Translations under genes and position numbers: made by a program
Assembly (NCBI RefSeq): GCF_016026235.1
Contig: NZ_CP065613.1
Source: Escherichia coli
GTDB taxonomy: Bacteria; Pseudomonadota; Gammaproteobacteria; Enterobacterales; Enterobacteriaceae
Length of the DNA: 64,000 nucleotides
Reading direction: 5' to 3' (one strand)
In this document: positions 10,474 to 58,802 of the stretch, in pieces
Position numbering within the stretch: the stretch's first letter is position 1
Layout of the letters: each line of letters opens with the position of its first letter
The notes under the pieces: model-generated
What the model was told of the DNA's origin: nothing
The model's input: the letters and a program-made list of their open reading frames with translations, nothing else
Database searches by the model: none

Positions 10474-11523
10474 TTATTCCCTGATTCGGATGGTGATGGC
10501 GGGCGGTACTTTCGGCTGACCAATAAAGCTGGTTCTACCGAGGCGGGAGCTGGCCGGATCGCCAAGGCGCATCCCTTTAGCCTGCTGTGGTGCCAGGCAC
10601 AGCCGTAAATCCCAAGCAAACTGGTCGCGCAGAATAAAGGAAAGGAACATGGTCAGAGGCAGGTGATTTTCGCCATCGGGTAAAAATGAGAGATAACGCT
10701 CCCGCGACAGGTTGCCAATCTGCAACAGAAATTTTCCGCTGCGATCCGGCACCCGTGCGCCGAGGGTAAAATTAACGCCAAGTATGGAGCGTCCCGGAAT
10801 ATGTCCAGCCGTTTTTCCTTTCGGATTACGTACACCAAGCCGGTTCTGGTGTGCCGGATCAATGGCGACTTTACGCAGTTGCCAGCGTTCAATGGTGACA
10901 TCCGGCAAATCAAAACAGTGCGACACCAGATTACAGATAACCTCCGGCGCGCGGCCTGGTGTTGCCAGAATTCCGGCGTAAGCCAGCATTTTGCTGTGGT
11001 TAATGGCAAGCCTGTCGCGCACGCTCTGATTACCCAGCCCGACCAGCGCGTACATGCGCTGTGAAAAGGTGTCAGTGCCGCCATTACGAAAGCAGATGTA
11101 GTAGCGGTATTTGCGCCAGGCATGATAGGCAAACTGTGTCCAGCGGTGGCTGAACAGATCGAGAAATTCTTTAAGGCCGTCTTCGTTCTGTGCGGACTCC
11201 TGCGCCATCTGATCCAGATAATAGCCCGGTAGCGGCGACTGGCTGCCGGAAAAACCAAGGAACCGGGTTTGCAGTACATACTGTCCGTTCTGGCTACGGG
11301 AAAGCGCACTCAGGTCCGTACCCGGAAAACCGATACTGGCGTCAGAGCTGAAACGCACGATCTCCCGGGCAGGCTCGGTACGCAGGGAAATATCCTGGCC
11401 CGGAGCGCCATACCGACGGTACAGCGCCTCCATCAGCACATAGAAATTGCAGTTGCGCACATCCGCCGATAACGGCGGTTTTACCGCTATATAAGGGCGT
11501 GCTGACCCATTTTCTCCTGCCAT
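10474..11523 (-). CDS. tssG: TssG baseplate protein
   Basis: 349 aa; follows tssF in conserved tssE-tssF-tssG order. Confidence 0.7.
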   Translation of the reverse strand: MAGENGSARPYIAVKPPLSADVRNCNFYVLMEALYRRYGAPGQDISLRTEPAREIVRFSSDASIGFPGTDLSALSRSQNGQYVLQTRFLGFSGSQSPLPGYYLDQMAQESAQNEDGLKEFLDLFSHRWTQFAYHAWRKYRYYICFRNGGTDTFSQRMYALVGLGNQSVRDRLAINHSKMLAYAGILATPGRAPEVICNLVSHCFDLPDVTIERWQLRKVAIDPAHQNRLGVRNPKGKTAGHIPGRSILGVNFTLGARVPDRSGKFLLQIGNLSRERYLSFLPDGENHLPLTMFLSFILRDQFAWDLRLCLAPQQAKGMRLGDPASSRLGRTSFIGQPKVPPAITIRIRE

Positions 11524-13347
11524 TCCCAGGCCTCCTGACTTTCCGTGTTGATAATTTTCAGACAGTGGTACGAATTGATGCTGGCGTAGAGAGCAAAAAA
11601 GTGCGAGAGCACTGTACCAAGAAGATAAATTTCACCTTCGCAGATAAATGGATCGGGACGTATCCACAGCGTGGTCGCCAGCCCGCGAACCGGCACGCCT
11701 TTAAACAACCTGTCAACAGGTTTGGTTTCGAGTTTTTCTATGGCATCCAGTTTCTGGCGCGACAGTCTGGCCCGCTGCGGATGGTGAGCGCCTGGCAGGT
11801 CGAAGGTCCGCAGGATCTGGATCAGTGTCTCCCTGTCCAGCAGGGAGAGGTAGTTCAGGTTCATCGCGGAAATCAGCGACCAGTGCATGTCAGCCGTCCG
11901 TGACTGGCCAGAGCGGCTGCGTTGGGCGTGTGACATTATGAAATGAGGCCACCGCCGGGTTTTTGTTGACGGCCACGCAGATATCGCCGATATGCAGCCG
12001 AGCAGGGATCATACGGTTGGTACAGATTAATGACGTGGTGATCACATCATCATTAAACCGTGAGCTGTCCGGAATGCTGCCGTCCGCATGGACAAAGGCG
12101 ATACTATGTTCAAGCCCGCGGTGAAACAGGGATGTTTTAGTCCGGTGATGCCAGTAGACGACTTCCCGCTGGCGGCTGTACTCCATCTGGTGCTGGAAAC
12201 TTTCAAATTCGGGCCAGACACGCGCCTGGCTGCCAGGGTTGGATTCAGTACCTGAAACTTTGACTTTGCTGGTGACTGTGCTTATCTGAAAAATGTCATA
12301 AGCGTCGGGATGCCGGTGGCTGGCGCGCAGCGGGTATTCCGCTATCCGTCCATCAGGCCTGACGGGTTCCGCATAATGCGTAAACAGGTTAATGGCTGGC
12401 GTACAGTGCAGACGCAGTGAGTCCTGGCGTAGCTTGATGTCGGCAGGTAACGGGCGGTTAAAGTGCAGGCGCAGCGTAAACGCGCTGACCGAGAAATCGT
12501 CCGGTAGTGGCGCAACATCGCGCAGATGGAAAAAAAAGAAGGCTTCGGGATAGCAGAAATACTCCTGGAGTACCCGATAGCCGCTGTGGACATTTTTCGG
12601 CCACGGTAGCAGGGCGTCCTGGTTTTCAAATCCGGCGGCCTCCAGCCACAGATCCGGCAGCGGCAGGCGGTACTCTCCGGCAATCAGTTCCGCATCCATC
12701 AGGCATTCGCAAAACCACAGATAAAGCTGGTGTCGGGTATAATCGTCTTCATTACCCAGCCAGAACGTTATTTTGTTCAGGTCAAGCATGGCGGGGGAGA
12801 CATTGTTATCTGCGGTAAAACTGATATCTATGATGCCTTCTTTCAGGCTGCTGGCGTTGCGGGTGTCGAGAATGCGCAGTGGTTGCAGCCAGATATCGCG
12901 CGCCAGCGTGAAATGACAGGCTACGGAAGAAACGATTTTATCATGATTGTCAGACAGCACCTTCTGAGCAGCCAGGGCGGACTTTTCTGAGCGGCTTCTG
13001 ATCAGTTCATTACGGCAGACTTGAACAGGGACTTTTAACTGATCGGTTTTGGGTTCATAGGCAATAACCGTCATGGCCGGAACTGGGCGTAAATAGTTTG
13101 CCCACAGCATACGGATTAGCCCATGGGTGAATTCGGGGAATTCGTCCTCAAGTTTCTGACGCAGGCTACCGGACATAAAGGCAAAGGCTTCCATCAGGCG
13201 CTCCACGTCCGGATCACCCTCTTTCTCGGCCAGAAAGTGGGCCAGATGTGGTTTTTCCTGCGCCAGCAGTTTGCCAAGCTGGCGAAGATAATCCAGCTCT
13301 TCGCGGTAGTAACGTTCTTCAAAAGCCACAGAGATCACTCCACACAA
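11487..13347 (-). CDS. tssF: TssF baseplate protein, apparently frameshifted (two overlapping ORFs 11890..13347 and 11487..11936)
   Basis: The 485 aa and 149 aa ORFs together give about 620 aa, the normal TssF size; the C-terminal piece carries the conserved TssF C-terminus (NLNYLSLLDRETL...). Frames differ by one nucleotide within 11890-11950. Confidence 0.6.
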
Positions 13348-17215: not shown

Positions 17216-19615
17216 ATGTCCTTAAAAGGTCTGCGCTTTACGCTGGAGGCTGACGGCCAGGAGCCGGACACCTTTGCAGTGGTGAATTTCAGGTTAATCC
17301 AGAACCAGTCTTATCCGTTTGTGATGAGTGTGGATGTTGCCAGCGACTCTTTTATGCAGACGGCGGAGATGCTGCTGGAGAAGAAGGCGACGCTGACCAT
17401 CTGGCAGGGCGTCATCCCGCTGCGTTATGTTACCGGCGTGGTGGCGGGCTTTGGCATGCAGGAGAACAATGGCTGGCAGATGCGTTACCACCTGCGTATT
17501 GAGCCGCCGTTATGGCGGTGCGGGCTGCGGCAGAATTTCCGTATCTTCCAGCAGCAGGATATCCGGACGATATCGGCCACGTTACTGAACGAGAACGGCG
17601 TCACGGAGTGGACGCCGCTGTTTTATGAGGACCATCCGGCGCGGGAGTTCTGTGTGCAGTACGGGGAGTCGGACCTGGCGTTTCTGTCCCGGCTGTGGGC
17701 GGAGGAGGGAATTTTCTTCTTTGAGCGGTTTGCGGCGGACAGTCCGGAGCAGAAGCTGACGCTGTGCGACGATGTGGCGGGGCTGTCACAGGCGGGAGAG
17801 CTTCCGTTTAACCCGGACACATCGGCAGGAGCGGAGACAGAGTGTGTCAGTATGTTCCGTTATGAGGCGTATGTCCGCCCGTCGTCGGTGCAGAGCCAGG
17901 ATTACACGTTTAAGGTGCCGGACTGGCCGGGGATGTATGAGCAGCAGGGTGAGAACCTGAACGGACAGCTGGCGCAGTACGAGATATTTGATTATCCGGG
18001 AAGGTTCAAGGATGAGCAGCACGGCAAGGATTTCACGCTGTACCAGATGGAGAGCCTGCGCAGTGATGCGGAAAAGGCCACAGGGCAGAGTAATTCGCCG
18101 AGGCTGTGGCCGGGAACGCGGTTTACGCTGACGGGGCATCCGCAGAAGATGCTGAACCGTGAATGGCAGGTGGTACAGAGCATTCTGTCAGGAAACCAGC
18201 CGCAGGCGCTGCACGGCAGCCAGGGAAAGGGAACCACACTGGGAAATCAGTTAGAGGTGATACCGGCGGACCGGACGTGGCGTCCACGGCTGCAAAGCAA
18301 ACCGAAGGTGGACGGGCCACAGAGCGCCATTGTCACCGGGCCTGCGGGAGAGGAAATCTTCTGCGATGAACATGGCCGGGTACGGGTGAAGTTCCACTGG
18401 GACCGTTATCACGGGATGACGGAGGCGAGTTCATGCTGGGTGCGGGTATCGCAGGCGTGGGCGGGGCCGGGGTTTGGTAACCTGGCGATACCGCGGGTGG
18501 GCCAGGAGGTGATTGTTGATTTTCTGAACGGAGACCCGGACCAGCCGCTGGTCATGGGCCGGACGCACCATGAGGACAACCGTTCGCCGGGCGACCTGCC
18601 GGGAACGAAGACGCAGATGACCATCCGGTCGAAGACCTATAAAGGAAGCGGATTTAACGAACTGCGCTTCGAGGACGCCACCAGTAATGAGCAGGTGTAT
18701 ATCCATGCGCAGAAGAACATGGATACGGAGGTGCTCAACGACCGGACAACGGATGTGAAACATGACCATACGGAAACCATCGGTAACGACCAGAAGATAA
18801 CGGTGGTGAAGGGTCAGACGGTTCAGGTCGGTACAAAAAAAGAGGGGGGCCACGACCAGAGTATCACGGTGGCGAACGACCGGCGTATCACGGTACGTAA
18901 TGACCAGACTCTGAAGGTGACGAATGACCGGACGGTGAGCGTGAGTCACGATGACGGTCTGTACGTCAGAAACGACCGTAAAGTGACGGTGGAAGGGAAG
19001 CAGGAGCATAAGACGACGGGGAACCATATCAGTCTGGTGGAGGGGAAACACAGCCTGGTGGTGAAGGGGGACCTGGCGGAGAAGGTGAGTGGCGCGCTGG
19101 GGATAAAAGTGGACGGGGATATCGTGCTGGAGAGCAGCAGCCGGATAAGCCTGAAGGTGGGTGGCTCGTTTATCGTCATTCAGCCGGGCGGAGTGGATAT
19201 TGCCGGGCCGAAGATAAACCTGAACGGTGGGGGCAGTGCGGGGACACCGGTGGGGACGATGCAGCCGGCGGTGCTGGAGGCTCCGGAGGATGAGAGCAGT
19301 GATGATGGCAGTGATGACTCCGGAGAGGATAGTGGCAATCCCGCAGGGAGTGACGGAGGAGGTGATGGCGGTGACGATGAAGATGATCCTGAAAAATATA
19401 CCCTCCAGTTCCATTTTACGGACGATGACGGGATACCGTATTCAGAGACGCAGTATATTGCCTTTTTTGAGGATGGCACACAGACGCGTGGTGAAACAGA
19501 CAGAGAGGGATATACAGAAATATTTTATACAGATACAGCACAGGAAATTAAAGTCCAATTGTTATTTTCGGATGCTTTTTATATTGAGCCGGAGGGGCAT
19601 TATGGCAGGGAATAA
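17216..19615 (+). CDS. vgrG: VgrG (TssI) spike protein with acidic C-terminal extension
   Basis: 799 aa; gp27/gp5-like body, repeated RNDxT/V-type beta-helix motifs, C-terminal acidic linker (DDGSDDSGED...GGDDEDD) plus about 70 aa tail. Confidence 0.9.
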   Translation: MSLKGLRFTLEADGQEPDTFAVVNFRLIQNQSYPFVMSVDVASDSFMQTAEMLLEKKATLTIWQGVIPLRYVTGVVAGFGMQENNGWQMRYHLRIEPPLWRCGLRQNFRIFQQQDIRTISATLLNENGVTEWTPLFYEDHPAREFCVQYGESDLAFLSRLWAEEGIFFFERFAADSPEQKLTLCDDVAGLSQAGELPFNPDTSAGAETECVSMFRYEAYVRPSSVQSQDYTFKVPDWPGMYEQQGENLNGQLAQYEIFDYPGRFKDEQHGKDFTLYQMESLRSDAEKATGQSNSPRLWPGTRFTLTGHPQKMLNREWQVVQSILSGNQPQALHGSQGKGTTLGNQLEVIPADRTWRPRLQSKPKVDGPQSAIVTGPAGEEIFCDEHGRVRVKFHWDRYHGMTEASSCWVRVSQAWAGPGFGNLAIPRVGQEVIVDFLNGDPDQPLVMGRTHHEDNRSPGDLPGTKTQMTIRSKTYKGSGFNELRFEDATSNEQVYIHAQKNMDTEVLNDRTTDVKHDHTETIGNDQKITVVKGQTVQVGTKKEGGHDQSITVANDRRITVRNDQTLKVTNDRTVSVSHDDGLYVRNDRKVTVEGKQEHKTTGNHISLVEGKHSLVVKGDLAEKVSGALGIKVDGDIVLESSSRISLKVGGSFIVIQPGGVDIAGPKINLNGGGSAGTPVGTMQPAVLEAPEDESSDDGSDDSGEDSGNPAGSDGGGDGGDDEDDPEKYTLQFHFTDDDGIPYSETQYIAFFEDGTQTRGETDREGYTEIFYTDTAQEIKVQLLFSDAFYIEPEGHYGRE

Positions 19616-20405
19616 TAATACTAGTGGGACTTCACAACCCGAGTCGCAAGTATGTGTAGTACCGCAAAAAATTACAAATAAATTTAAAATAATGATGAGT
19701 AAGGCTTGTAAAGCACAGAAAATGGTTTTATTGAAAAGAGCAGATGATATTATGTCATGGGAGGGGGAACAACAACGAGATTTTATTAAAGTTTTTGGCC
19801 TTAAAGGCGAGGACATTATAAAAATCAGAAAGGTTGGGGAAGATACTGGGAAACGAATGCAAGCGAGACTATTCATAATGGATGGCATCAGACGAATAAT
19901 GACGATTGCAAATGGTTTGACGATCGAAAGCTATAAAGATTATACGAACTGCAATGAATTTGCTGCTTTTATTAGTCCACATCTTGATCCTCCTTACATT
20001 GTAAATATCGGAGCGCATTTTGAATACAGACATGGTATAAAACAGTCGGTTACAGGTAGAGACTCTCATGTAAGTACACTTTGCCATGAAATGTCCCATA
20101 TATTTTGGTATTGGGGTGACAATCAAAAAGGTGGTATGTGGACTCAGGATTATACGGGTATTAATAAGTTCGCAACAAGTAATAAGGATGAAGTTAGCTA
20201 TGAGAAACATGTTTCAGTGGCTAATGATCTGGTTACATTGCGTAAAGATCAGTTATTTGAGAATGCATATAATGTTGAAAGATATTTTTATATAAAATTA
20301 AATGATGAAGATATTGAAGCTCAAGATGAGAATATGTTAGCAAAAAAAGTAGAGGATAAAATAAAAGAGATAGAAAAATGTTTTGATGAGTTGATGGGGA
20401 AATAA
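19602..20405 (+). CDS. Putative VgrG-associated effector, zincin-like metallopeptidase candidate (HExxH)
   Basis: ATG at 19602 overlaps vgrG stop by 14 nt (track ORF 19227..20405 begins inside vgrG). AT-rich; motif STLCHEMSHIFWYWGD...WTQDYTG (HExxH plus a downstream Asp). Confidence 0.45.
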   Translation: MAGNNNTSGTSQPESQVCVVPQKITNKFKIMMSKACKAQKMVLLKRADDIMSWEGEQQRDFIKVFGLKGEDIIKIRKVGEDTGKRMQARLFIMDGIRRIMTIANGLTIESYKDYTNCNEFAAFISPHLDPPYIVNIGAHFEYRHGIKQSVTGRDSHVSTLCHEMSHIFWYWGDNQKGGMWTQDYTGINKFATSNKDEVSYEKHVSVANDLVTLRKDQLFENAYNVERYFYIKLNDEDIEAQDENMLAKKVEDKIKEIEKCFDELMGK

Positions 20406-20468
20406 GATGAAGAGGTTGGCTTTCTATAATCTAAATTATGTTGTACTGATGGTTTTTTTCTTTGTTTT

Positions 20469-21155
20469 TTGCCATTATCTATTGCAATTGCAATAGATAA
20501 TGAGAATCTTTTTGTAAAAAAATACAGATTCGGTTTTGAACGAAGAAGTGACAATGGGAAACCAATTATTTATCTTAGCCATAATTTAGCGCCAGAGGAA
20601 AATATAAGTAATGAATTAACAAATGATGTTGTTGTTAAATTGGTGGTTAAGCCACATGCTGAAAATATTTTAGCTACTATAACTTTTTATAACAGTAGTA
20701 CTAAATCGTATTTTCTCCCCAGAATATATTATCCAAAGAACTTCCAAAAAGGAAATGGAGATGTATTTGATGCTTTGTGTGATGACGAATTCTTGATTAC
20801 ATCAGGAAATATTAGCTTAGACTATCTAGGAGGCTTTTGTCCCTTTGAGCTTGATTTGAATTTGAGCCGATGGGTGGAAATTACGGCAGGTAAAAAAATA
20901 TCTTTTGATGTAAAATTGAATGATATGCATTCATTTCTCCCCAGTTTAAATAATTATCATATAAAAACATTAAACTACAAACTTGTTAGGAGAAAATGGT
21001 TTGTATTAAAATCAATTAATGAAACATTCCTCTCTATTTTGATGAAAAGATACTCATGTAATGAATATGATTTTAGAGCTATATCATTTAGTGGAGAGGG
21101 ATGTGATAATTATGAATTTGATAAAAATACGTTTTTTTTGTTAATCAAATATTAG
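20469..21155 (+). CDS. Hypothetical protein, immunity candidate for the upstream effector
   Basis: AT-rich 228 aa ORF directly downstream; begins with TTG in the track; a 29-codon ATG-initiated hydrophobic peptide (20407..20496) lies in another frame just upstream across a T-run. Confidence 0.3.
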   Translation: MPLSIAIAIDNENLFVKKYRFGFERRSDNGKPIIYLSHNLAPEENISNELTNDVVVKLVVKPHAENILATITFYNSSTKSYFLPRIYYPKNFQKGNGDVFDALCDDEFLITSGNISLDYLGGFCPFELDLNLSRWVEITAGKKISFDVKLNDMHSFLPSLNNYHIKTLNYKLVRRKWFVLKSINETFLSILMKRYSCNEYDFRAISFSGEGCDNYEFDKNTFFLLIKY

Positions 21156-21394
21156 ATAAAGATGATGAGCAACATTCTGTTCATATTAGGTCTAATGAAT
21201 TTTCCATCAATATCGATGGAAGCTTGGTAAAGCAACCTTATTGATTAAAATGTATCGCAGGTTTTATTTTCTGTAATGCTGGTGCATGTGCGTAAATATT
21301 TCTTAAGAGCCGGAAACACCTCTTCCGCCTTTATCGACGATAAACCTACCGCCAGAACCGGTGATGCCATTGACTGCGGTGGCGTGGTTAAAGG

Positions 21395-21732
21395 TGGCGG
21401 GCGATGTGGTGCTGGAGAGCAGCAGCCGGATAAGCCTGAAGGTGGGCGGTTCGTTTGTGGTCATCCATTCAGGGGGCGTGGACATCGTCGGGCCGAAAAT
21501 CAATCTCAATAGCGGCGGTAGTCCGGGAACGCCGGTGCCGACGCTGCAACCGGCGGTTCTGAAAGCGCTGGCAGATGATAAAAGTTTAGCGGCTGAGCAA
21601 AATGATAGTAATGCATCGTCCGATCAGAATGATAACAACGATGAGGGTGAGGAAGCGCCAGAAAAATCGGTGTGTAAGGAGTGCCTGAAAAGGGCGCAAG
21701 AAGCCGCCGCCGTTTTTGCGCCTCGTGGATAA
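21395..21732 (+). pseudogene. vgrG 3-prime fragment (orphan VgrG C-terminal region)
   Basis: 21395-21560 is near-identical at DNA and protein level to vgrG 19103-19270 (GDVVLESSSRISLKVGGSFVVI...GPKINLN); upstream sequence is unrelated to vgrG; distinct C-terminal tail. Confidence 0.7.
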
Positions 21733-27732: not shown

Positions 27733-28005
27733 TTTTTCAAATTGTGTGATTAAATAATTGAACATTAATGATGATTTATAGCATCATTATTCTATAACAT
27801 GAATAAACGGATTGAATGTGTTATGTTAAAAATGAGTTTATACGTAATAATATTGTTATTTCCCTTTCAGATTAGTGCAGCCATTACTAGCAAGGAAAGT
27901 GAGGTTGTTTCACCATTATTAATGGATGTTAATTCTTCACTAACAATGGAAAATATTTCTGAATTATCCACATCATCGGAACCATCGCAACAGGGGGTAT
28001 TTCCC

Positions 28006-29297
28006 TGAGGGATCCCCAGAAAATTTAGTAAACCATTATCATATTGGTATACCGTTGCTGTAGAACTTTCAGCCCTGCGTCAAGTGACAGTGTGTTTAGT
28101 ATGAGTGGAGAATGTCGAATCACATTCTCCGCCAGTTTTAATAACGAGATGACTCGCCTGTGCTTCACTGTATTTGCCTGATATTTATGATGTATCCCTT
28201 TGTTTTCCAGGCTGAAACCGCTTAACCACATAATGATACTGGCTAATGTTGCGATCAGACTCAATACCGTGACCCGCCCGGATGAATGACTGGCACCAAA
28301 CCGTAGTCCAAATCCCCAGCGAGGATTTTTTTCATCCCTGAAATTTTGCTCAATTTGCATTCTACGGCTGTATAATTTCATTACCTGTTTTGGCGAGAAC
28401 TCAGTACTGTTTGTGAAAATAAACCATGGTGATTTCCCGGCAGTACGAGCTTTAGCCGTCACCGATGGTCTGGTTGCTCTTTCCTTCGAGCGTTTAAATC
28501 TACGACCTTTAGGCTTACTTTTATAAAGATAAAAATGCCCTTCATGTTGTGCATTTTTATCTCGACCCAGCAGGCCTTCACCTAAATAAATTGCTGTCGT
28601 TGATGCTTTTGTGCCTGAGTCCGACACCTTTTCCCAGCCATTACCAACATTGTAATAATGATTGCCCAGTACCCGGCAAATATAGGTCCAGCCACGGGAG
28701 CGGAGCTGTTGGAACCATCGCCCCTGAAAACCGGCATCTGTAATAACAATGACATCAGTCCCGGGGGAAAAGCACTCAGCAAGCGATTCCAGAAAACGCT
28801 CATGTACATCTGCATTCGCTGTCTGTGATGATGGAACGACACAACTCATCAACGGTAAAGAACGCCCGTCACATGCCAGGCTTGCCCGCAAAAGCTGAAA
28901 ACGAGAGGCATGATAAGCACTCCAGTCAATGAGTATCACAACACGAGACATTCCCCGCGTAATCTTTTGGGTAATTCGCTGAAAAATGGTGGAAACCTCA
29001 TTTTGCAAATGTCGATTCCCCAACAGTCGATCCACCCGCTTTATTTTGTTTTTAACTGATGCCGTACCGGTTAAATGACGCCCGATACTGGTAAGTGTGA
29101 GGGAAGCGCCATTTATTACAGCATTAGTTGCGTCAATCAGTGATTTTTGACGGTAAAGATGCAAAGGGGCCAGTATATTGTTAAGGAAATTTTGGCATAA
29201 TGAACGTGCAGGCATAGTGGTGATCTCCTTGAAATTGTTAGCACAATCAATTAGATCACATCTCACTATGCCTGTCTTGTTTTCTGGGGATTCCTCA
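28006..29297 (-). mobile_element. IS4-family-like insertion sequence, copy 1 (intact), approx 1292 bp
   Basis: Terminal inverted repeats TGAGGGATCCCCAGAAAA / TGAGGAATCCCCAGAAAA; 11-bp direct repeat GGGGTATTTCC at 27994-28004 and 29298-29308; single transposase ORF. Confidence 0.8.
28025..29215 (-). CDS. IS transposase (intact)
   Basis: Track ORF 28025..29266; start placed at ATG 29215 (MPARSLCQNFLNN...) with RBS AAGGAG, matching the start in copy 2. Confidence 0.8.
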   Translation of the reverse strand: MPARSLCQNFLNNILAPLHLYRQKSLIDATNAVINGASLTLTSIGRHLTGTASVKNKIKRVDRLLGNRHLQNEVSTIFQRITQKITRGMSRVVILIDWSAYHASRFQLLRASLACDGRSLPLMSCVVPSSQTANADVHERFLESLAECFSPGTDVIVITDAGFQGRWFQQLRSRGWTYICRVLGNHYYNVGNGWEKVSDSGTKASTTAIYLGEGLLGRDKNAQHEGHFYLYKSKPKGRRFKRSKERATRPSVTAKARTAGKSPWFIFTNSTEFSPKQVMKLYSRRMQIEQNFRDEKNPRWGFGLRFGASHSSGRVTVLSLIATLASIIMWLSGFSLENKGIHHKYQANTVKHRRVISLLKLAENVIRHSPLILNTLSLDAGLKVLQQRYTNMIMVY

Positions 29298-29635
29298 GGG
29301 GTATTTCCTGTAATATGTACTCGACTTCATCCTGGCTCTGTAATGAAACGCCAGTTATTAACCGGCTGGGGGCCTGTTTTTATAATTGGGGATGATCCTT
29401 TTTCTCTGCGCTGGATGAGTGAACATCTGGAGATCCTTAAATCGCTAAATGCCCTTGGTTTGGTTGTTAATGTTGAATCAGTAGAACGAATGGAGGTATT
29501 ACAGCAGCGGGCTGATGGGTTATTGTTATTGCCAGTTATCTGCGATAATTTCGTGCAAACTCTGCAATTAAATGCTTATCCGGTATTAATCACAGAGATG
29601 GAAATATCACAATGATTAATAACATAATTACTGCA

Positions 29636-56392: not shown

Positions 56393-57092
56393 GATATGTT
56401 TACGAAGTAGATAAGGCCGGGAAAAACCGGCCTGAAAGCGTTAGCAAGGTAGCAGCGAAAACGCATAAAGCAGCGGCTCTGCGCAACATTCAGCCTGAAT
56501 TTGTTGGCGAATCAGCAGCGCATTTTCACTCTCTCGCCAGCGTTCAAACATGGCAAAGAGGGCGAAAATATCCTCCTGCCGCAGCGGAGAACCATCCAGC
56601 GTCCATAAACTGATTAACGTGCGGAGGAGATAAAAATCGCACACCAGCGGGAAATAATCCGCCCCGTCAGTCTGCCCAATCATATCGTGGTAAACGCGGT
56701 AAATCAGCCAGTTACGCATCATCCAGGGCGCGGTGGCAAAATGCTGTTGCCAGGTGGTTTGCCACTGCGTCTGAAGCTGCTGTTGTAACAGGGCTTCGCT
56801 GTTGGCGTCATGCAGCGTCAGTAAAGTAACCTGCAACGGCAGCGAGGCTTTGCGCGGGCTTTCCGGCAAAATCGACCAGTCAAACGCACAACCGCCGAGC
56901 AGCGTCATCAACTGGCGCGCCAGCTGTGGCACGGGTGGGAGCTGGGCGTACTGTGCCTGTAGCGTACCTTTTTTCGCATGATCGGCCAGCGCCTGTGGCA
57001 GCGTCGTCAAACGGGCCAGGATGTCTCCGTCTCTGCCCGGCATTTTGCTGGCGCGGGAGAGCAAAATCCCGACAGCATACAGGGAAAGCTCC

Positions 57093-58383
57093 TGAGGAAT
57101 CCCCAGAAAACAAGACAGGCATAGTGAGATGTGATCTAATTGATTGTGCTAACAATTTCAAGGAGATCACCACTATGCCTGCACGTTCATTATGCCAAAA
57201 TTTCCTTAACAATATACTGGCCCCTTTGCATCTTTACCGTCAAAAATCACTGATTGACGCAACTAATGCTGTAATAAATGGCGCTTCCCTCACACTTACC
57301 AGTATCGGGCGTCATTTAACCGGTACGGCATCAGTTAAAAACAAAATAAAGCGGGTGGATCGACTGTTGGGGAATCGACATTTGCAAAATGAGGTTTCCA
57401 CCATTTTTTAGCGAATTACCCAAAAGATTACGCGGGGAATGTCTCGTGTTGTGATACTCATTGACTGGAGTGCTTATCATGCCTCTCGTTTTCAGCTTTT
57501 GCGGGCAAGCCTGGCATGTGACGGGCGTTCTTTACCGTTGATGAGTTGTGTCGTTCCATCATCACAGACAGCGAATGCAGATGTACATGAGCGTTTTCTG
57601 GAATCGCTTGCTGAGTGCTTTTCCCCCGGGACTGATGTCATTGTTATTACAGATGCCGGTTTTCAGGGGCGATGGTTCCAACAGCTCCGCTCCCGTGGCT
57701 GGACCTATATTTGCCGGGTACTGGGCAATCATTATTACAATGTTGGTAATGGCTGGGAAAAGGTGTCGGACTCAGGCACAAAAGCATCAACGACAGCAAT
57801 TTATTTAGGTGAAGGCCTGCTGGGTCGAGATAAAAATGCACAACATGAAGGGCATTTTTATCTTTATAAAAGTAAGCCTAAAGGTCGTAGATTTAAACGC
57901 TCGAAGGAAAGAGCAACCAGACCATCGGTGACGGCTAAAGCTCGTACTGCCGGGAAATCACCATGGTTTATTTTCACAAACAGTACTGAGTTCTCGCCAA
58001 AACAGGTAATGAAATTATACAGCCGTAGAATGCAAATTGAGCAAAATTTCAGGGATGAAAAAATCCTCGCTGGGGATTTGGACTACGGTTTGGTGCCAGT
58101 CATTCATCCGGGCGGGTCACGGTATTGAGTCTGATCGCAACATTAGCCAGTATCATTATGTGGTTAAGCGGTTTCAGCCTGGAAAACAAAGGGATACATC
58201 ATAAATATCAGGCAAATACAGTGAAGCACAGGCGAGTCATCTCGTTATTAAAACTGGCGGAGAATGTGATTCGACATTCTCCACTCATACTAAACACACT
58301 GTCACTTGACGCAGGGCTGAAAGTTCTACAGCAACGGTATACCAATATGATAATGGTTTACTAAATTTTCTGGGGATCCCTCA
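57093..58383 (+). mobile_element. IS4-family-like insertion sequence, copy 2 (mutated), inverted relative to copy 1
   Basis: Same inverted repeats as copy 1; 11-bp direct repeat GGGAAAGCTCC at 57082-57092 and 58385-58395. Confidence 0.8.
57175..58364 (+). pseudogene. IS transposase pseudogene (nonsense codon plus 1-bp deletion)
   Basis: Relative to copy 1: CAG to TAG at approx 57410 and an A6 run where copy 1 has A7 (approx 58066-58071); track shows three ORF pieces. Confidence 0.75.
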
Positions 58384-58802
58384 GGGGAAAGCTCCGGGGT
58401 TAAATCACGGAGCGTGAGGGTACTCAAAATCACCTGGTTTACTATCGCATCGCGCGCGGAAAGCTCTGCGGAATTATCTTCCACAGGGCGGTAGGTGAGC
58501 TGTAAATCAAAGGCCCTGACATCGTTGAGCACCGCTTCGCAGCTGGCAATATCGGTCAATGACAGGCTCAGGCGAATCTCGTTTTTCCACACCTTGCGGA
58601 CGTATAAAGGCGAACCGGGGTGACGCGCTAAAAATTTGCGCACGTATTCCGGTTCGTAACATTCAATAAAACTCATAGGTGGCTTCCAGTCTTTAATGCT
58701 GTGCAGGATATGCAATAAGCGTGCCGGGGATTTTTGTAATTAAAAACAAGGGATTGGAAATCAGGCGGAAAATCCATTTCCGCTATGGGGAAGGTATTCG
58801 CG

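Follow-up and report, generated by a model that had tools for sequence, protein, structure and literature searches.

Two one-base losses in poly-T tracts probably inactivate a candidate type VI secretion immunity gene in Escherichia coli

Why should a hydrophobic leader lie in a different reading frame from the protein that it seems made to precede? The question is raised by a stretch of 64,000 nt of Escherichia coli DNA (NCBI RefSeq assembly GCF_016026235.1, contig NZ_CP065613.1; hereafter the window), in which an ATG-initiated open reading frame (ORF) of 29 codons ends at 20496 and a long ORF runs on from 20469 in the frame reached by adding one base. The initial annotation, whose coordinates we confirmed, took the long ORF for a candidate immunity gene and offered an inactivating indel, a sequencing error at a homopolymer or a slippage-prone switch as the cause of the arrangement. 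We consider it likely that the locus holds a doubly frameshifted allele of a periplasmic type VI secretion system (T6SS) immunity gene, cognate to the VgrG-linked M35-like effector encoded immediately upstream.

Alleles in which the gene is whole allow the two breaks to be located. A 1.7-kb query was compared with 5,426 complete E. coli genomes, which gave 12 matches at 99.6% identity or more. The first poly-T tract (tract 1) has seven T in two of these genomes, eight in nine and nine in one, and wherever it has eight (9/12) the RefSeq coding sequence starts at the leader ATG. Tract 2 has nine T, with a 3' extension of the gene, in 6 of the 12, and T8 at tract 1 occurs together with T9 at tract 2 in five, which encode a single protein of 279 amino acids (aa). 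The window carries the mark of a pseudogene, as it is one T short at each tract when compared with this 279-aa allele and also with homologs of 272-276 aa. The signal peptide begins natively with codons 1-18 of the leader ORF (MKRLAFYNLNYVVLMVFF, 20407-20460), beyond which 11 codons are read through out of frame. The long ORF, whose frame is reached by one extra T in the run at 20453-20459, corresponds to residues 22-246 of the 279-aa protein, followed by four out-of-frame codons (LIKY) and TAG. The proposal of an inactivating indel is thus borne out by T7 in place of the T8 of intact alleles, and it is extended by a second frameshift at 21132-21139, absent from the initial annotation, which swaps the conserved C-terminal tail (about 33-35 residues) for LIKY. 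Each of the two breaks lies in one of the gene's two longest homopolymers. We scored the T runs in 45 loci by pattern; four of these are duplicates of one assembly, and the loci were sampled by isoform, so that the counts are not population frequencies. The initial annotation had placed the frame switch at two T runs, of which the T7 run is variable (7, 8 or 9 T across loci) and stands, whereas the T6 run at 20465-20470 has six T in 45/45 and drops out. As to translation starts, only 1 nt separates the leader ATG from the TAA that ends the M35 gene, and a GGGGA stands 6 nt ahead of that ATG. Nothing like a Shine-Dalgarno sequence precedes TTG 20469, and the first in-frame ATG of the long ORF comes only very late. 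The 228-aa product annotated from TTG 20469 almost certainly does not begin at a real protein start.

The frame-corrected N-terminus (MKRLAFYNLNYVVLMVFFLCFLPLSIAIA, followed by IDNENLF) has a charged n-region (MKR), a hydrophobic core whose best 12-residue window starts at residue 11 (mean Kyte-Doolittle hydropathy 2.96), and A-I-A at positions -3 to -1 (SIAIA/ID, the slash marking the predicted cleavage). No lipobox is present in this leader, in which FFLC does not match L-[AS]-[GA]-C. Judged by hydrophobicity and the AxA rule, the frame-corrected protein is predicted to carry a Sec-dependent signal peptide of the signal peptidase I type. A word-indexed search added only three clusters, at 47-53% identity. 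Two of them, the Salmonella Moero and P0018 proteins, carry a hydrophobic leader in frame and share the C-terminal tail; the third is a gene call cut at the N-terminus. When 1.84 billion cluster representatives were searched with a profile, 84 relatives emerged, of which 72 fell below 1e-10; most are 270-315 aa long. A 12-residue window with a mean hydropathy of at least 2.0 within the first 45 residues is found in 38 of 47 family members, and five further members are borderline (1.87-1.98); P0016 and P0020 begin at the mature N-terminus and are truncated gene calls. Because the homologs carry in-frame hydrophobic leaders, the leader is native to this gene. The comparison of orthologs that the initial annotation had called for could have revealed an independent start and no conserved leader; what it gave instead is leaders in frame in the close clusters, or a call cut at the N-terminus. 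The initial annotation also expected a leaderless protein to lack an export signal; in the intact T8 alleles the predicted signal peptide is in frame. In the 47-member alignment, few parts of the family are better conserved than the tail motif (...IRSNQV...IDG....S.Y), and the tail is modelled confidently (predicted local distance difference test, pLDDT, 94-96 at residues 260-279). Neither the gene nor any of its 47 relatives has a meaningful match in Pfam or NCBIfam, and the gene belongs to an unnamed, leader-bearing family with no model in either database.

What this family does is suggested by its neighbours. The gene order is vgrG, M35-like effector and then the leader-bearing gene, all co-oriented and adjacent, as in an effector-immunity pair. 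Pfam Phage_GPD, Phage_base_V and Gp5_trimer_C match the identical vgrG of two related loci (L015 and L020), whereas for the effector the match to Aspzincin_M35 is weak and stays under the cut-off (E = 0.001). In GC content the effector and immunity module, at 31-36%, differs from vgrG, at 55-61%. At the Salmonella locus an M35-like gene also lies directly upstream, the effector being 64% and the partner 49% identical to those of the window. At a more distant locus (L057) identity falls to about 29% for the partner and 27% (E = 5e-27) for the upstream effector, which comes after a C-terminal piece of VgrG. Orphan copies of the family adjoin a truncated effector or lie in T6SS islands (L027 and L056). 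As far as these comparisons of sequence and gene order go, the pairing with M35-like effectors is conserved across divergent homologs. In published work, M35-type toxins of the E. coli T6SS had to be directed to the periplasm to be toxic (PMC7904677), and one such toxin was neutralised by the gene downstream of it (PMC10673891).

An AlphaFold model built from the 47 family members reached a mean pLDDT of 84.5 (41 with a seven-row alignment); in it, a helix at the N-terminus (the leader) is joined by a beta-sandwich, three helices and a hairpin at the C-terminus. The core fold is best matched by the zymogen structure of AsaP1, an M35 aspzincin of Aeromonas salmonicida, and by a protease inhibitor (the intracellular proteinase inhibitor Ipi/BsuPI of B. 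subtilis). These matches come from a predicted model and not from a solved structure, and AsaP1 and Ipi share only 10-13% sequence identity with the protein here; searches of PDB sequences with the gene family and with the effector returned nothing meaningful. The matched part of AsaP1 is probably the pro-domain and not the catalytic domain, judging from the unit being as large as Ipi, an all-beta protein. The AsaP1 pro-domain (depositions 2x3a-c) reportedly acts as an inhibitor. A pro-domain-like fold suggests that immunity may work by occupying the protease much as its own pro-peptide would. The label of immunity candidate given in the initial annotation gains support because of the apparently conserved pairing with M35-like genes together with the predicted fold match. 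These lines of evidence, with the analogy to the reported toxins, support a periplasmic, inhibitor-type immunity protein that would need its signal peptide.

The ancestral gene (T8, T9) would then have encoded a 279-aa pre-protein with a signal peptide, a pro-domain- or inhibitor-like beta-sandwich core and the conserved tail, its start being translationally coupled to the stop codon of the effector. Slippage in replication would have cost each tract one T, leaving T7 of an original T8 at 20453-20459 and T8 of an original T9 at 21132-21139. After the first loss, translation from the coupled ATG would halt after a hydrophobic peptide of 29 aa, and the mature part would be left with neither a start codon bearing a ribosome-binding site nor an export signal; after the second, the native C-terminal tail would be gone and LIKY would stand in its place. 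Most likely no useful periplasmic immunity protein is made from such an allele, which is probably non-functional or at most leaky. The features concerned are collected in Table 1.

Table 1. Coordinates in the window of the gene, its poly-T tracts and related features
Feature	Position	Strand	Details
Leader ORF	20407-20496	+	ATG start; 29 aa, MKRLAFYNLNYVVLMVFFFVFCHYLLQLQ, then stop TAG 20494-20496
Poly-T tract 1	20453-20459	+	T7 here, T8 in intact alleles; splits signal peptide from mature protein
T6 run	20465-20470	+	Length 6 in 45/45 pattern-scored loci; not the switch point
Long ORF	20469-21155	+	228 aa annotated from TTG; RefSeq WP_052239153.1 in close relative FDAARGOS_943
Perfect 30-bp palindrome	20473-20502	+	CATTATCTATTGCAA/TTGCAATAGATAATG; in codons of the signal-peptide cleavage region
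Poly-T tract 2	21132-21139	+	T8 here, T9 in full-length alleles; second frameshift
Stranded native C-terminal tail	21140-21244	+	35 codons, VNQILDKDDEQHSVHIRSNEFSINIDGSLVKQPY, then stop; out of frame
M35-like zinc metallopeptidase effector	19602-20405	+	267 aa, HEMSH motif, apparently intact; RefSeq "peptidase M35"
vgrG (T6SS spike gene)	17216-19615	+	799 aa; carries the cargo module that follows it; equivalent gene in RefSeq, T6SS Vgr family protein
tssF (T6SS baseplate gene), split in two ORFs	11487-13347	-	1-nt T insertion at about 11892

Could the two frameshifts be artefacts, the strain truly having T8 and T9 and the homopolymers having been under-called in a long-read assembly? Long-read assemblies are well known for such under-calling, each of the two breaks is the loss of a single base from a T run, and the window matches a 4.56-Mb contig (L020) that is probably a long-read assembly. 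However, the exact 228-aa product is found on 49 public contigs (NCBI and Logan), and at least nine different assemblies have T7/T8, among them several fragmented drafts (contigs of 37-74 kb). L020 (GCA_900449985.1, contig UGFA01000002.1) agrees with the window at every base over 20,687 bp, and so do L021 over 17,532 bp and L023 over 9.7 + 3.2 kb (12.9 kb), tracts included; L015 differs by one mismatch in 17.5 kb, and neither L015 nor L021 has a gap relative to the window. A close relative, FDAARGOS_943 (99.93-99.97% identity), is 100% identical over the 1.7-kb query. The other frameshift of the window's lineage, in tssF, lies outside any homopolymer and is likewise shared by L015, L020 and L021. 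Because 100% identity over 9.7-20.7 kb extends to three other assemblies, T7/T8 is a real allele of the lineage and not a read error; the sequencing error put forward in the initial annotation has been abandoned, as it deserves hardly any credence. If the allele is real, the tracts might still be maintained as a contingency locus (phase variation), that is, as a reversible switch between ON and OFF, or full and truncated, forms of M35 immunity in sub-populations. Among the 45 loci, tract 1 has 7, 8 or 9 T and tract 2 has 8 or 9 T, every one of the six possible pairings being represented, and the tract state changed at least three times between otherwise identical haplotypes: identical 4.1-kb haplotypes of single-nucleotide polymorphisms carry, with tract 1 given before tract 2, (8,8) five times and (9,8) once, (9,9) three times and (8,8) once, or (9,9) once and (7,9) twice. 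Pairs with different tracts are separated by 2-4 substitutions plus the tract over 8.8-12.8 kb. Moreover, the full 279-aa form is on only about one-third of the contigs listed, and the Salmonella ortholog has poly-T runs at the same two places (T8 and T7). Since near-identical haplotypes differ at the tracts, replication slippage recurs there. Runs of 7-9 are, however, short for a bacterial phase-variation tract, and the observed variation is what run-length-dependent replication slippage predicts, the indel rate of E. coli climbing exponentially with run length (PMC8510543). Both tracts simply encode conserved Phe-Phe positions, and a codon shuffle of the intact gene shows a marginal enrichment of homopolymers (runs of at least 7: 4 observed vs 1.4 expected, P = 0.04; runs of at least 8: 2 observed vs 0.55 expected, P = 0.10). 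T7/T8 is kept in all six loci that share an identical haplotype, with no ON revertant among them; some OFF alleles arise by a different route, a G-to-T change that turns GG-T7 into G-T8 (L052 and L053); further truncated forms of 98-203 aa among the public contigs point to decay; and the sampling by isoform limits what the counts can say for a switch. No sign of a designed or regulated switch at the tracts was seen in the 45 loci, the haplotype comparison or the codon shuffle. What remains of the slippage-prone switch proposed earlier is that the tract mutates recurrently in the population, and the notion of a designed or regulated switch is left with no support. Phase variation is thus quite improbable, and the allele is nothing unusual in kind at a locus where slippage mutations recur.

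It is also conceivable that the allele, though genetically OFF, still gives some correct protein, perhaps enough for partial immunity, either by insertion of U by RNA polymerase at T7 and T8 or by -1 ribosomal slippage on U_UUU_UUC aided by a hairpin. The T7 allele creates the heptamer T_TTT_TTC (20454-20460), on which a -1 slip would yield the wild-type sequence MVFFLCFLPLS exactly, and a stable hairpin begins 12 nt 3' of it. This hairpin is formed by the palindrome of Table 1 (13 bp in RNA, -17.2 kcal/mol, z = -7.2), the sole perfect palindrome with arms of at least 10 in the 64-kb window (0/300 shuffles exceeded an arm of 12). Rfam gave no known RNA family in 20200-21400. A loose scan had also proposed the palindrome as a terminator, which we rejected for its AU-rich stem, a U run that is not adjacent and its position inside an ORF. 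Insertion of U by the E. coli polymerase is documented for both run lengths: -1 reporters were rescued at about 5% for T7 and about 10% for T8, and RNA-seq put insertion at a T7 run at 0.75% (PMC6260861). There is also a T6SS precedent, tssM of Citrobacter rodentium, which is reportedly rescued by transcriptional slippage (PMC4256274). However, because both tracts must be corrected on one molecule, the yield of full-length protein is expected to be about 0.1-0.5% or less. A spacer of 12 nt is longer than usual for stimulators of -1 frameshifting. The palindrome is present in all E. coli alleles, the in-frame ones included, and absent from the Salmonella ortholog, so the hairpin did not evolve for recoding. 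Nor is the two-frame arrangement conserved, as it would be in programmed recoding: most alleles and all orthologs are in frame, and the homologs and 9 of the 12 complete genomes, among them all five with the 279-aa allele, are single-frame. Leaky recoding that restores useful protein therefore seems unlikely.

The preferred reading, a doubly frameshifted immunity gene, was further compared with the state of the secretion system. The insertion in tssF changes GGC-GAC to GGCTGAC and leaves ORFs of 479-485 aa and 133-149 aa. It is common to L015, L020 and L021, with two TssF products shown in L020, and tssF is intact in FDAARGOS_943, A30 and ECNB21-M121. The window has an intact tssC, which an insertion sequence (IS) of the IS21 type disrupts in FDAARGOS_943, and it is free of the IS21, IS600 and IS1 copies of that strain. 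Because its tssF is split, the secretion system is probably dead in this lineage too, and decay of the immunity gene fits the frameshifted tssF of the same lineage. Every T7 allele that could be assessed sits in a damaged system: tssC is interrupted by IS21, the cluster is lost, vgrG carries IS600 or the effector is truncated. Several observations nevertheless weigh against our reading. The tail-less (8,8) form of 249 aa (loci L002, L005, L006, L008 and L028-L037) is the commonest isoform, with 110 public contigs (T8/T8), followed by 93 + 9 + 3 for the 279-aa form and 18 + 11 for the 258-aa form, and in ECNB21-M121 it stands together with the effector and a T6SS-1 cluster that is, as annotated, fully intact; because it is commonest and stands beside an intact T6SS, the tail may be dispensable or rescued. 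Allele state and T6SS integrity show no clean link, since A30 has the full-length (8,9) allele and an internal stop in tssH. Furthermore, with extra U added by RNA polymerase at about 1-10% at T7/T8 (PMC6260861) and with U_UUU_UUC in place, some correct protein is possible. A general rule tying a broken immunity gene to a broken T6SS was considered and is ruled out by the (8,8) strain with an intact cluster and the (8,9) strain with a tssH pseudogene. Two of the (8,8) loci, L005 and L006 (NZ_AP045789.1 and NZ_AP045800.1), have a vgrG upstream of the same module that is annotated as "frameshifted".

These results have some bearing on how such genes are recorded and on how they decay. RefSeq holds the variants of 228, 249, 258 and 279 aa as separate "hypothetical proteins", of which only the 279-aa form is the complete gene, and none of the 12 RefSeq records examined flags the frameshift. 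The locus shows fast decay of T6SS immunity genes by homopolymer slippage: about two-thirds of the public contigs listed carry a broken version, sometimes beside an intact effector and secretion system, which raises the question of whether such strains are vulnerable to kin with the same toxin. The tracts might even form a rheostat of immunity at the level of the population (full-length, tail-less, leaderless and with both defects), in which OFF alleles such as this one are part-protective, either through U added by RNA polymerase at T7 and T8 or through a -1 ribosomal slip on U_UUU_UUC ahead of the 13-bp hairpin. We regard this as very unlikely; if true, it would account for truncated alleles being tolerated where T6SS and effector are intact, as a case of slippage-tuned T6SS immunity. 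The unnamed pro-domain-like family, the truncated alleles beside intact effectors and the palindrome are of more interest than the frameshift itself.

The surroundings of the module are as follows. On its 3' side lie a vgrG fragment, a DUF4123 gene, two DUF3304 genes and a Tle1 phospholipase gene, and on its 5' side hcp and the T6SS core genes. The vgrG C-terminal fragment (21361-21732), which stands between the M35 module and the DUF4123/DUF3304/Tle1 module and is recorded as "incomplete, missing N-terminus" in RefSeq relatives, looks like a recombination scar left by the insertion or swap of a cargo module. The window also has two IS copies of about 1.3 kb (28004-29298 and 57078-58390; IS4-like ISEc60 in a close relative), the first of which is absent from L015, L017, L023 and L024, loci otherwise nearly identical to the window. 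A second, lateral flagellar cluster of the Flag-2 type (flhA, flhB, fliP, fliQ, fliR, fliF-J, flgA-F and others) flanks the T6SS island at about 38000-64000; A30 and ECNB21-M121 have only truncated flhA and lafU left at the Flag-2 site.

Compared with known systems, the arrangement resembles the C-terminal metallopeptidase of P. aeruginosa VgrG2b and PA0261, where, as here, a VgrG-linked M35-type toxin is directly followed by a small neutralising gene; the effector here is a separate gene and not a VgrG domain, and its Aspzincin_M35 score is sub-threshold. The E. coli PAR M35 toxin and its downstream immunity gene have the same layout, with toxicity in the periplasm (PMC10673891). The likeness to PA0261 and to the PAR immunity gene is one of gene layout. 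With respect to recoding, Citrobacter rodentium tssM (PMC4256274) is reportedly a frameshifted secretion-system gene rescued by transcriptional slippage, and Shigella mxiE, with a T9 tract, is reportedly another. They share with the present locus an A/T homopolymer at the frameshift site of an enterobacterial secretion-system gene; their tracts reportedly measure 9-11 nt and their frameshifted state is conserved, whereas at this locus the tracts have only 7-8 nt and it is the in-frame state that is ancestral. Also close is the class of pseudogenes formed by homopolymer slippage in accessory genes of E. coli, which like this allele have one-base losses in their longest runs, inherited by a lineage, in an AT-rich (about 31% GC), horizontally acquired gene whose tract length is polymorphic among near-identical haplotypes. 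Unlike the typical members of that class, however, two tracts are affected here in one small gene, in six combinations, and the commonest public isoform is a truncated one.

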